Source of the DNA: Escherichia coli | GTDB taxonomy: Bacteria; Pseudomonadota; Gammaproteobacteria; Enterobacterales; Enterobacteriaceae | Assembly (NCBI RefSeq): GCF_003334305.1 | Contig: NZ_QOWS01000014.1 | Length of the DNA: 64,000 bases | Reading direction: 5' to 3' (one strand) | Shown: one piece after another, positions 62,505-64,000 of the stretch | Layout: each line of letters opens with the position of its first letter | How positions within the stretch are numbered: the stretch's first letter is position 1 | The notes under the pieces: model-generated | What the model was told of the DNA's origin: nothing | The model's database searches: none | Seen by the model: only the letters and a program-made list of their open reading frames with translations | Position numbers and translations under genes: made by a program

Positions 62505-63725
62505 ATGTCTATTTATAAAATTCCTCTTCCGCTCAATATTCTGGAAGCTGCACGAGAGCGTATTACCTGGACACTCAACACCCTACCCCGCGTTTGTGTC
62601 TCATTTTCTGGCGGCAAAGACTCTGGTTTAATGCTGCATCTGACAGCCGAACTTGCCCGACAAATGGGCAAAAAAATCTGCGTTTTGTTTATCGACTGGG
62701 AGGCGCAATTCTCTTGCACCATTAACTATGTTCAGTCCCTGCGCGAGTTGTACACCGATGTCATCGAAGAGTTTTACTGGGTTGCGCTCCCGCTTACGAC
62801 GCAAAATTCCCTTTCACAATACCAACCCGAATGGCAGTGCTGGGAACCTGATGTCGAATGGGTGCGTCAGCCCCCGCAAGATGCGATAACCGATCCTGAC
62901 TTTTTCTGCTTTTACCAGCCAGGCATGACCTTCGAACAATTTGTACGTGAGTTTGCCGAATGGTTTTCACAAAAACGTCCGGCGGCGATGATGATCGGCA
63001 TCCGTGCGGATGAGTCCTACAACCGTTTTGTCGCCATCGCCAGTTTAAATAAACAACGTTTTGCCGACGATAAACCATGGACTACGGCCGCACCAGGCGG
63101 TCATAGCTGGTACATTTACCCCATTTACGACTGGAAAGTGGCTGATATCTGGACCTGGTATGCAAATCATCAAAGTCTCTGCAACCCACTGTATAACCTA
63201 ATGTATCAGGCAGGCGTTCCTCTGCGTCATATGCGAATTTGCGAACCTTTTGGCCCGGAGCAACGACAAGGATTATGGCTCTATCACGTTATCGAACCGG
63301 ATCGCTGGGCTGCTATGTGCGCACGAGTCAGCGGGGTAAAAAGTGGCGGCATTTACGCCGGACATGATAATCATTTCTATGGGCATCGGAAAATCCTCAA
63401 GCCAGAACATTTAGACTGGCAAGAATATGCATTATTGCTGCTCAATAGCATGCCGGAAAAAACAGCTGAGCATTACCGCAATAAAATCGCCATTTATTTG
63501 CACTGGTATCAGAAAAAAGGCATCGAGGTTCCACAAACCCAGCAAGGGGACATTGGCGCGAAAGATATCCCCTCCTGGCGGCGGATATGCAAAGTTTTAC
63601 TCAATAACGATTACTGGTGTCGGGCATTATCATTTAGTCCTACGAAAGCGAAGAACTATCAGCGTTATAACGAACGGATAAAAGGAAAACGTCAGGAATG
63701 GGGGATACTATGCAACAACGATTAA
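62505..63725 (+). CDS. ybdN: PAPS reductase-like (adenine nucleotide alpha-hydrolase fold) protein
   Basis: 406 aa; SFSGGKDS PP-loop motif near the N-terminus. Confidence 0.85.
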   Translation: MSIYKIPLPLNILEAARERITWTLNTLPRVCVSFSGGKDSGLMLHLTAELARQMGKKICVLFIDWEAQFSCTINYVQSLRELYTDVIEEFYWVALPLTTQNSLSQYQPEWQCWEPDVEWVRQPPQDAITDPDFFCFYQPGMTFEQFVREFAEWFSQKRPAAMMIGIRADESYNRFVAIASLNKQRFADDKPWTTAAPGGHSWYIYPIYDWKVADIWTWYANHQSLCNPLYNLMYQAGVPLRHMRICEPFGPEQRQGLWLYHVIEPDRWAAMCARVSGVKSGGIYAGHDNHFYGHRKILKPEHLDWQEYALLLLNSMPEKTAEHYRNKIAIYLHWYQKKGIEVPQTQQGDIGAKDIPSWRRICKVLLNNDYWCRALSFSPTKAKNYQRYNERIKGKRQEWGILCNND

Positions 63726-64000
63726 CGCAGGATTTAACGCAATTTCTCGCCAGCTTGCCGGAAGATGATCGCATCAAAGCGATTAATGAAATCCGCATGG
63801 CGATCCATCAGGTTAGCCCCTTTCGTGAAGAGCCAGTGGATTGCGTTCTGTGGGTTAAAAACAGCCAACTTATGCCTAATGATTACAACCCAAACAACGT
63901 GGCACCACCCGAAAAAAAACTGCTGAAAAAATCCATTGAAATAGATGGTTTTACCCAACCCATTGTGGTCACGCATACGGATAAAAATGCCCTGGAAATC
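63710..64000 (+). CDS. ybdM: ParB/Srx-like domain protein, N-terminal part (continues beyond the window)
   Basis: ATG at 63710 overlapping the ybdN 3' end; open frame to the window edge. Confidence 0.7.
   Translation, partial: MQQRLTQDLTQFLASLPEDDRIKAINEIRMAIHQVSPFREEPVDCVLWVKNSQLMPNDYNPNNVAPPEKKLLKKSIEIDGFTQPIVVTHTDKNALEI

Follow-up and report, generated by a model that had tools for sequence, protein, structure and literature searches.

The stretch of Escherichia coli DNA analysed here (the window; 64,000 nucleotides (nt) of contig NZ_QOWS01000014.1) ends in two overlapping genes, ybdN and ybdM. They encode a PP-loop enzyme of the phosphoadenosine phosphosulfate (PAPS) reductase family and a ParB-like protein. 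Genes of the ybdN-ybdM type form one unit, a nearly obligate pair. This near-obligate pairing is the new result of the analysis; the gene pair itself was already annotated and known. We tentatively propose, at a likelihood somewhat short of even, that ybdN-ybdM is a translationally coupled operon encoding a ParB-assisted, ATP-dependent DNA-modifying module of phage type that is silent in E. coli.

Pairing of ybdN and ybdM in genomes and viruses

A scan of GTDB with the YbdN alignment, using one genome per species, yielded 80 loci. These loci span Enterobacteriaceae, Verrucomicrobiota, Bacteroidota, Firmicutes, Alphaproteobacteria, Helicobacter, Listeria, an actinobacterium and a Heimdallarchaeota metagenome-assembled genome. 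With the E. coli reference and three phages added, 84 loci were available for a pairing count, in which open reading frames (ORFs) were called and then searched with a YbdM profile. Exactly one same-strand YbdM-like gene adjoins the YbdN-like gene in 83 of the 84 loci, downstream in 81 and upstream in 2. At the sole unpaired locus, the contig stops 40 nt after ybdN. Overlap with the enzyme gene was seen for 58 of the 81 downstream partners, and 20 of them begin within 30 nt; the starts follow a longest-ORF rule, so the overlap counts are upper bounds. With starts chosen in this way, a 28-nt overlap recurs in 12 loci, matching the orthologous loci of Enterobacteriaceae.

The same arrangement is common in viruses. 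Among the first 600 pattern matches in IMG/VR, 226 encode a YbdN relative, and the best 80 contigs were analysed. A YbdM-like gene lies within ~1 kb on the same strand in 70 of these best 80 contigs (adjacent downstream in 46, adjacent upstream in 22 and further off in 2). The upstream YbdM-like genes of many viral contigs encode a long form of ~380-400 amino acids (aa) (e.g. L109:5799-6968 and L023:5848-7035). Its ~120-180 extra C-terminal residues have no match in Pfam, NCBIfam or PHROG.

The YbdN protein

YbdN has the SGGxDS PP-loop of the PP-loop ATP pyrophosphatase/PAPS-reductase superfamily, and the motif is intact (SFSGGKDS). Pfam identifies a PAPS_reduct domain (residues 30-234, E 1.2e-13), followed by DUF3440 at residues 237-344 (5e-23) and 352-383 (2e-6); a PP-loop family is also matched weakly. 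The AlphaFold model is of high confidence (predicted local distance difference test score 92.1, predicted template modelling score 0.90) and has a Rossmann-like alpha/beta/alpha fold superposable on CysH, CysD or flavin adenine dinucleotide (FAD) synthase. The closest folds are those of flavin mononucleotide (FMN) adenylyltransferase/FAD synthase, the ATP sulfurylase CysD, and the adenosine phosphosulfate (APS) and PAPS reductases. No structural match was found for the helical DUF3440 half. A sequence search of PDB chains found no close solved relative of either YbdN or YbdM, the matches being a weak one to FAD synthase and a weak one to Noc.

The conserved residues were defined in an alignment of 57 full-length, diverse homologues that are 27-84% identical. 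G37, K38, S40, D64, E66, W113, W119, S171, D214 and Y230 are invariant, and the PP-loop residues S35, G36 and D39 are kept in at least 90% of the sequences. D64 and E66 fall within the sequence FIDWEAQ. S171 and the near-invariant E170 fall within GIRADES, in which D169 is not conserved. The PAPS_reduct domain also holds YPIYDW..DIW and a Trp-rich insertion of ~45 residues at about residues 95-140. These features place YbdN in the PAPS-reductase branch of the PP-loop superfamily, with a design suited to ATP binding and to cleavage of the bond between the alpha and beta phosphates.

The catalytic cysteine of CysH lies in a C-terminal Cys motif. No cysteine of YbdN is conserved among the 57 homologues: the best column is 84% Cys with Ala in E. 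coli, and the others reach at most 60%. Lacking a conserved cysteine, YbdN is, as judged from the alignment, not a PAPS reductase that depends on a thiol, and it is not an Fe-S sulfurtransferase of the DndC type either. Scores against family models are low for both. YbdN reaches 34.8 bits with the CysH model TIGR02057 (cut-off 254), 34 bits with NF002537 (cut-off 154) and 22.2 bits with the DndC model TIGR03183 (cut-off 290.4, E 5.5e-5). Its match to the phage family phrog_2302, 'PAPS reductase', is strong (E 1.4e-76).

Long or fused YbdN homologues (P0123, P0178, P0190, P0252 and P0235) proved uninformative; they show low-complexity tails, a 141-aa extension or, in one case, a probable chimera. 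The protein database also holds clusters of truncated YbdN, for example P0090 (309 aa, 432 members).

The YbdM protein

The single YbdM sequence matches Pfam ParB_N weakly (2.8e-4). A family profile built from 65 sequences matches Noc (2.3e-7) and ParB (1.2e-5) in the PDB, and YbdM has the ParB N-terminal (Srx-like) fold. A helix-turn-helix (HTH) lies C-terminal to the ParB/Srx domain, and the protein stops after it at residue 209. The family is 41-58% identical across phyla (Proteobacteria, Firmicutes, Bacteroidota and an archaeal virus) and has 30 invariant columns, which include N64-P65-N66, D103-G104, R107, R143-H-N-R-A-R-G149 and H151. Two of these motifs align with Box I (NPN vs QPR) and Box II (DGFHR vs GERRW) of Noc, and RHNRARGxH is a candidate Box III. 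The three ParB 'box' motifs thus appear to survive in variant but almost invariant form (NPN, DGxHR and RHNRARGxH). The nucleotide specificity of ParB-like proteins cannot be predicted from sequence (PMC12704722). Among phage families, YbdM matches phrog_2159 (E 3.9e-69) and, for the ParB part of ParB::methyltransferase fusions, phrog_498 (1e-10).

A role as a canonical partition ParB was rejected: YbdM scores 15.8 with TIGR00180 against a cut-off of 58.45, its locus lacks parA, and no further domain follows the HTH. The idea that the ParB-like partner serves as a small terminase was also rejected, since the cassette of Arthrobacter phage Laroye has distinct genes for the small and the large terminase beside it. 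In Escherichia albertii NBRC 107761, the ybdM orthologue is broken into ORFs of 51 and 120 aa (L006:1154-1783), which suggests a frameshift or pseudogene in the representative genome of that species.

An original prediction, made from the sequence of the window alone, had described ybdN as PAPS-reductase-like with the PP-loop SFSGGKDS and ybdM as ParB/Srx-like. Motif, domain matches and fold bear out the first description, and the family profile, fold and HTH the second. The predicted overlap of the two genes is real, 28 nt long or 15 nt with an alternative start. The parallel drawn with IbrA/IbrB also holds, both in the RefSeq name of YbdM ('IbrB-like') and in paralogous IbrAB-type pairs in islands and on plasmids. 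Co-conservation across genomes, proposed at that time as a check, has turned out to be strong, both in the 84 loci and in the viral contigs.

Neighbouring genes and the phage link

Outside Enterobacteriaceae, the wider neighbourhoods of the pair are unrelated to one another. Even so, certain DNA enzymes recur. The gene directly upstream encodes a short SNF2-type helicase in 16 loci of genomes or phages, Lactobacillus phage AQ113 among them, and in 20 viral contigs. The protein matches phrog_62 (1e-51 to 1e-63), and it has weak ZorD-like matches. This helicase is the recurrent ATPase beside YbdN-type pairs in the 164 loci, and it is not of the DndD, SspC or BrxC family. A C5-cytosine DNA methyltransferase is encoded in six viral contigs (score 144.8; TIGR00675 cut-off 100.65) and a superfamily 2 (SF2) DNA helicase in five. 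Small accessory proteins recur as well, one of ~137 aa, whose gene is directly upstream of that for the YbdN homologue in 16 loci from Bacteroidota, and a different one of ~130 aa, accompanying the pair in 15 viral contigs (e.g. L105:6603-7001). Neither has a match in Pfam, NCBIfam or PHROG.

YbdN-type genes are abundant in phages, and 224 phage records match YbdN. The order enzyme-then-partner is kept in Streptococcus, Lactobacillus and Pseudoalteromonas phages. In Arthrobacter phage Laroye the order is ParB-like, PAPS reductase (more distant), ParB-like and methyltransferase, followed by the terminase genes. A YbdN homologue of 74% identity is named 'IbrA family prophage gene co-activator' (P0049), and phage pairs are annotated as IbrA/IbrB. 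PHROG annotation of the neighbours at three bacterial loci gave 'unknown function' families only.

Several kinds of neighbour were looked for and not found. No recurrent nuclease or other effector, cysteine desulfurase or DndD/SspC-like ATPase lies beside the pair in the 164 loci, and no metabolic gene co-occurs with it outside Enterobacteriaceae. PADLOC-DB v2 gave three weak partial matches and no system (YbdN to DndC at 2e-5 and to BrxP at 1.2e-4, YbdM to MTase_II at 6.6e-4).

Core status in E. coli and mobile paralogues

The pair is present in 5420 of 5426 complete E. coli genomes, and close orthologues occur in Salmonella and Klebsiella. In most of the orthologous loci examined, from Citrobacter, Enterobacter, Kluyvera, Pseudocitrobacter and Superficieibacter, it is flanked by citR and ybdL. 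The window as a whole has a GC content of 50.1%; ybdN comes near it with 47.6% and ybdM with 46.8%, and the values are 38.6% for citR and 31-35% for the spacers. Only citR and the intergenic DNA are AT-rich at the locus, so the AT-richness claimed for the whole region is true of them and not of the pair.

In 1771 of the 5420 genomes, a 2.6-kb query from the locus is matched at just 80-90% identity. Divergence of citR explains this. Two deeply divergent citR alleles exist in E. coli, with 79.3% nt and 88.4% aa identity (L001:8057-8959 vs L085:6050-6952), and the flanking genes are 95-99.8% identical. An old allelic split and import by recombination are possible causes of this dimorphism. Between the divergent lineages, ybdN is 95.2% identical in nt and 98.3% in aa, and ybdM 97.9% and 99.5%. 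Codon differences are mostly synonymous (7 non-synonymous against 48 synonymous in ybdN, 1 against 12 in ybdM), and by this measure both genes are under purifying selection. Diversifying selection on ybdNM was ruled out, as the divergence is confined to citR.

The E. coli ybdNM is therefore a core, vertically inherited copy and not accessory DNA. The idea of an H-NS-silenced accessory island fails on the presence of the pair in nearly all genomes, its synteny, its near-average GC content and its purifying selection; the H-NS control that has been reported concerns citR (PMC9068703). The copy that fits the word 'accessory' is the mobile IbrAB paralogue. IbrAB-type paralogues are 54-60% identical to YbdN in aa (examples from the genome scan). 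Extra pairs of this type, about 77% identical in nt to a Citrobacter paralogue, were found at 8089 places in 5421 E. coli genomes, with 118 on plasmids. They sit in islands rich in insertion sequences (IS), for example in UTI89, or beside toxin genes on a plasmid.

A proposed mechanism

Enzymes of the PAPS-reductase branch form or cleave an AMP-O-X anhydride; sulfate is adenylated by CysD and FMN by FAD synthase. From the features of the pair, we infer DNA as the substrate, adenylation as the chemistry and YbdM as a loader or activator. YbdM would bind DNA, probably in a nucleotide-dependent manner, and would recruit or activate YbdN on double-stranded DNA (dsDNA). YbdN would use ATP to adenylate a DNA group, either a backbone phosphate or a base oxygen. 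This adenylation would be the activating step of a covalent modification, with release of pyrophosphate and then of AMP. In phages, the pair would serve counter-restriction or an epigenetic purpose by marking the DNA of the phage itself. The core copy of E. coli and its relatives would be held off, reportedly by CitR. Sulfate reduction is not the reaction, and phosphorothioation of the Dnd/Ssp type is probably to be discounted as well, because YbdN has no conserved cysteines and no sulfur-donor partner. The sulfur-modification role raised in the original prediction is disfavoured for these reasons; neither a desulfurase nor a DndD/SspC-type ATPase accompanies the pair.

The proposal has precedents. 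DndC, SspD and BrxP are DNA modifiers with a PAPS-reductase domain (PMC12914056), and the title of a Tdp paper cited in that work describes a DNA phosphorothioation pathway via an adenylated intermediate. A phage thymine dioxygenase requires a cognate ParB-like activator on dsDNA (PMC13229309). On mobile elements, orphan proteins of the ParB-like kind have been shown to bind CTP, ATP or GTP; fusion to a DNA methyltransferase is common among them, and fusions of this kind are frequent in prophages (PMC12704722). A Vibrio phage fusion of a PAPS-type domain to Dam is part of an anti-Dnd determinant (bioRxiv 10.1101/2021.05.05.442762), which shows that PAPS-type domains can matter in phage-host conflict. 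A DNA-directed role is the best-supported reading, resting on the HTH of YbdM, the helicase and methyltransferase neighbours, the phage enrichment and the ParB-partner precedents. Of the nucleic-acid modification or defence role first suggested for the pair, the nucleic-acid part is thereby favoured, if unproven.

A wider generalization can be formulated, and we regard it as doubtful. YbdN/YbdM (IbrA/IbrB) would be the minimal core of an as yet undescribed, sulfur-independent DNA modification pathway, in which a ParB-fold loader puts a PP-loop adenylating enzyme on dsDNA and a new adduct on the backbone or on a base results. Phages of Firmicutes, Bacteroidota, Proteobacteria and Actinobacteria and even a virus of Asgard archaea would make wide use of this pathway, and in E. 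coli, Salmonella and Klebsiella it would be a dormant part of the core genome.

Several observations weigh against a DNA-modifying role. We know of no unusual DNA modification in E. coli K-12, though the operon is reportedly repressed in the laboratory. No donor of a replacing group, such as a desulfurase or amidotransferase, travels with the pair, and the end product therefore cannot be named. DUF3440 has no recognisable DNA-binding fold. In 10 of the best 80 viral contigs, a YbdN-like gene is present and YbdM was undetected (one gave a borderline match). YbdM has been described as 'completely uncharacterized' (PMC8764527). The only phenotype of the family, in the account that PMC7649339 gives of Sandt 2002, is that IbrAB raises expression of prophage eib genes, an effect that would suit a regulator just as well as it suits a DNA modifier. 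Phosphorothioate was absent from a Bacteroides isolate described as having a 'PAPS reductase next to an ATPase' (PMC12914056), in which the PAPS reductase gene may or may not belong to the YbdN family. A literature search that reached few subscription journals found no paper that assigns a reaction to the YbdN/YbdM pair, and a 2025 survey of the ParB-CTPase fold makes no mention of YbdM, IbrB or PAPS reductases (PMC12704722).

Alternative explanations

The main rival explanation is that YbdM is a KorB-like, nucleotide-gated DNA-binding regulator, that YbdN makes, consumes or attaches an adenylylated ligand that controls it, and that DNA is not covalently modified. It suits the IbrAB phenotype and the HTH of YbdM, and we consider it unlikely. 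A transcription factor would rarely be as conserved across phyla as YbdM, with its identity of 41-58% and 30 invariant columns, as operators would differ. The recurrent partners of the pair are helicases and DNA methyltransferases, not target promoters, and the raised eib expression could be secondary to DNA damage or modification on the prophage.

A substrate other than DNA would be consistent with the nearest solved folds to YbdN, which act on small molecules, and with the Srx, SerK and SbnI relatives of YbdM, which are enzymes. YbdN might then adenylate or thiolate tRNA or another RNA (like TilS, TtcA or TtuA), a protein, perhaps even YbdM, or else a nucleotide or other small molecule, and YbdM might be an Srx/SerK-like phosphotransferase in a two-step pathway. 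This is quite unlikely in our view. YbdM has an HTH, the recurrent neighbours are SNF2-type and other DNA helicases and DNA methyltransferases, and no metabolic gene co-occurs outside Enterobacteriaceae. The Fe-S and Cys residues of tRNA thiolases are also absent from YbdN.

The pair may instead be a stand-alone host defence against phages or plasmids, either as an effector or as the marking half of a restriction-modification-like system whose restriction half is elsewhere. The weak PADLOC matches of YbdN to DndC and BrxP and of YbdM to a ParB-methyltransferase point in this direction, as do the IbrAB-type copies in mobile islands and on plasmids. YbdM protein was 29-fold up in E. coli with the multiresistance plasmid pUUH239.2, and deletion of ybdM slightly raised the cost of the plasmid; overexpression of YbdM carried a 10% growth cost (PMC8764527). 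A defence function is nevertheless very unlikely. PADLOC gave no match at the level of a system, and the 164 loci show no recurrent nuclease or effector and no recurrent restriction-type partner. The E. coli copy is core, syntenic and conserved, unlike variable defence islands, and the family is abundant in the genomes of phages themselves. The defence half of the earlier suggestion lacks direct support.

E. coli already has cysH, which counts against the product name of YbdN. The notion of a genuine PAPS/APS reductase or sulfur-assimilation auxiliary gene, to which the Pfam PAPS_reduct match, the RefSeq product name and the rise of the cys regulon in a ybdO deletion strain (PMC9068703 Table 1) lend colour, is effectively refuted, as the lack of a conserved cysteine makes CysH thiol chemistry impossible across the family, the scores of 34-35 bits lie far from the CysH cut-offs of 154-254, and the obligate partner is a ParB protein of DNA-binding type.

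Organization of the locus

The window is E. coli chromosome and matches strain 2013C-3181 at 100% identity over positions 61400-64000. Its right end carries, in this order, ahpF(-), ahpC(-), dsbG(+), citR/ybdO(+), ybdN(+) and ybdM(+). A RefSeq record identical to the window (L001) gives the full locus order as citR-ybdN-ybdM-ybdL and names the products of ybdN and ybdM 'phosphoadenosine phosphosulfate reductase' and 'IbrB-like domain-containing protein'. The features are listed in Table 1.

Table 1. Positions in the window of citR, ybdN, ybdM and the features within them
Feature	Position	Strand	Basis
citR (ybdO), LysR-type regulator, upstream of ybdNM	61456..62358	+	300-aa ORF; RefSeq 'DNA-binding transcriptional repressor CitR'
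citR-ybdN spacer, 146 nt, 35% GC	62359..62504	.	sequence
ybdN, 406 aa, predicted PP-loop ATP-pyrophosphatase/adenylyltransferase-type enzyme, PAPS-reductase family with C-terminal helical DUF3440	62505..63725	+	ORF, Pfam, PHROG, alignment, model
PP-loop motif SFSGGKDS, residues 33-40	62601..62624	+	sequence and alignment
PAPS_reduct (Rossmann-like alpha/beta) domain, residues 30-234	62592..63206	+	Pfam
DUF3440, all-helical C-terminal domain, residues 237-383, family-specific	63213..63653	+	Pfam
Overlap of ybdN 3' end and ybdM 5' end	63698..63725	+	28 nt from RefSeq start 63698
ybdM, first 101 of 209 codons; ParB/Srx-fold domain, then HTH (HTH past the window)	63698..64000	+	RefSeq, profiles, PHROG
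ybdM DYNPNN motif, rich in invariant residues	63881-63898	+	alignment

The interval 62505-64000 contains the complete ybdN but the first 303 nt only of ybdM. The complete ybdM has 630 nt (L001:10299-10928) and would end at window position 64327. An alternative ybdM start, the ATG at 63711, would shrink the overlap with ybdN to 15 nt. The two genes are read in different frames, and the ybdN stop codon sits within ybdM. Such an overlap implies that translation of the two genes is probably coupled. Just past the window, the ends of ybdM and the convergent ybdL abut with zero intergenic bases (L001:10928/10929), so their transcripts must overlap at the 3' ends.

The spacer between citR and ybdN contains an imperfect inverted repeat (62410-62427 and 62437-62454) with 18-nt arms that are 78% complementary and a core of ACACT-N9-AGTGT. 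The repeat, at 62410-62454, could be an operator or the citR terminator. A scan of the citR-ybdN region found promoter-like sites at chance level only and no canonical terminator.

Elsewhere in the window, a perfect 12-nt inverted repeat, GGATGGTTGAAA / TTTCAACCATCC, with arms 12 nt apart, lies at 61260-61295, right after the dsbG stop codon. It is probably the stem of the dsbG terminator, though a simple terminator scan missed it. The strain of the window also carries ybdR, a gene for a zinc-dependent alcohol dehydrogenase (L001:2423-3661, window ~55822-57060), between yldA and uspG. This gene is absent from strain CUVET20-PYO4, in which a segment of ~1.6 kb is missing from the alignment.

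CitR and the regulation of ybdNM

CitR (YbdO) gave a peak upstream of citR in ChIP-exo (exonuclease-treated chromatin immunoprecipitation). Deletion of ybdO raised ybdN by a log2 fold change of 5.5 and ybdM by 2.5, and CitR was called a repressor of ybdNM (PMC9068703). The size of this effect could be inflated by read-through from the deletion cassette or scar, as ybdN is the next gene downstream of the deleted one and shares its strand. In the same deletion, the cysteine regulon (cysDNC, cysJI and cysPUWA) and flagellar genes rise along with ybdNM (PMC9068703 Table 1). In strain EC16 (NZ_CP194961.1), an IS1 transposase is annotated inside the citR region, and the query match is in two pieces. 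If CitR represses ybdNM, this interruption would be a natural derepression of the pair.

Significance

E. coli K-12 still has some uncharacterised genes, and ybdN and ybdM are two of them. The IbrAB family has carried only a phenomenological label since 2002, and its phage copies are routinely mis-annotated as sulfur-metabolism auxiliary genes or partition genes. The almost obligate pairing, the helicase and methyltransferase company and the absent cysteines turn a vague annotation into a testable question about a DNA adduct. If a new modification exists, it would add a ParB-assisted, adenylation-based route to the known phage DNA modifications and would explain how IbrAB raises prophage gene expression. 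If there is no modification, the regulator reading gains. Whatever the outcome, there is nothing exceptional about the E. coli locus itself, which is conserved and was annotated before.

Comparison with known systems

YbdN resembles CysH, CysD and FAD synthase in fold, and it differs from them in lacking the CysH cysteine and in having the Trp-rich insertion of ~45 residues and DUF3440. Its partner is a ParB-like protein instead of CysN or thioredoxin.

Like DndC, SspD, BrxP and TdpC, YbdN is a PP-loop enzyme of the PAPS-reductase family, and those enzymes act on DNA. As in Dnd systems, the enzyme gene lies beside a gene of the ParB/Srx superfamily with a DGxHR-type motif (DndB there, YbdM here). 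The differences are considerable. Direct sequence similarity between YbdN and DndC is weak and far below the family cut-off (22 vs 290 bits), and DUF3440 is absent from descriptions of DndC, SspD, BrxP and TdpC. DndC is an iron-sulfur protein according to a title cited in PMC12914056 and has a specific Cys dyad (PMC12839542), whereas YbdN has no conserved cysteines or Fe-S ligands. Phosphorothioate synthesis needs a neighbouring P-loop ATPase, namely DndD, SspC or BrxC (PMC12914056). Unlike Dnd and Ssp, ybdNM comes without the DndD/SspC ATPase, DndE, a cysteine desulfurase or restriction genes of the DndFGH type. DndB regulates and can be dispensed with, whereas YbdM almost always accompanies its enzyme.

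IbrA/IbrB, the immunoglobulin-binding regulator pair of E. coli ECOR-9, shows the same two families, gene order and overlap as ybdNM, a comparison made with the system as described and not with the ECOR-9 sequences themselves. Unlike IbrAB, which lies in IS-rich mobile DNA, ybdNM is the core chromosomal copy in the citR-ybdL slot, reportedly repressed by CitR. Raised Eib expression is known for IbrAB alone, as its only phenotype.

The Vibrio phage PAPS-domain::Dam protein offers a case in which a phage PAPS-type domain is tied to DNA modification and has been shown genetically to help overcome a DNA-based host defence. It is a methylase fusion with no ParB partner or DUF3440 reported, and the comparison with YbdN made here is at the level of the domain. 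Fusions of a ParB domain to a methyltransferase follow the same logic as the pair, with a ParB module coupled to a catalytic module that modifies DNA, and are enriched in prophages (PMC12704722). Unlike these fusions, YbdN and YbdM are separate, coupled polypeptides, and the catalytic part is a PP-loop protein and not an S-adenosylmethionine-dependent methyltransferase.

A similar arrangement is found in 5mYOX176/ParB176 (PMC13229309) and DpdA/DpdB (PMC12839542), where a small, non-partition ParB-like protein stands beside a DNA-modifying enzyme and is needed on dsDNA. The enzymes differ from YbdN, one being an iron/2-oxoglutarate dioxygenase and the other resembling tRNA-guanine transglycosylase. 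The ParB proteins associated with 5mYOX have no obvious DNA-binding domain, whereas YbdM has an HTH. With these differences, a partner of the ParB176/DpdB type is the closest functional analogy for the proposed role of YbdM.

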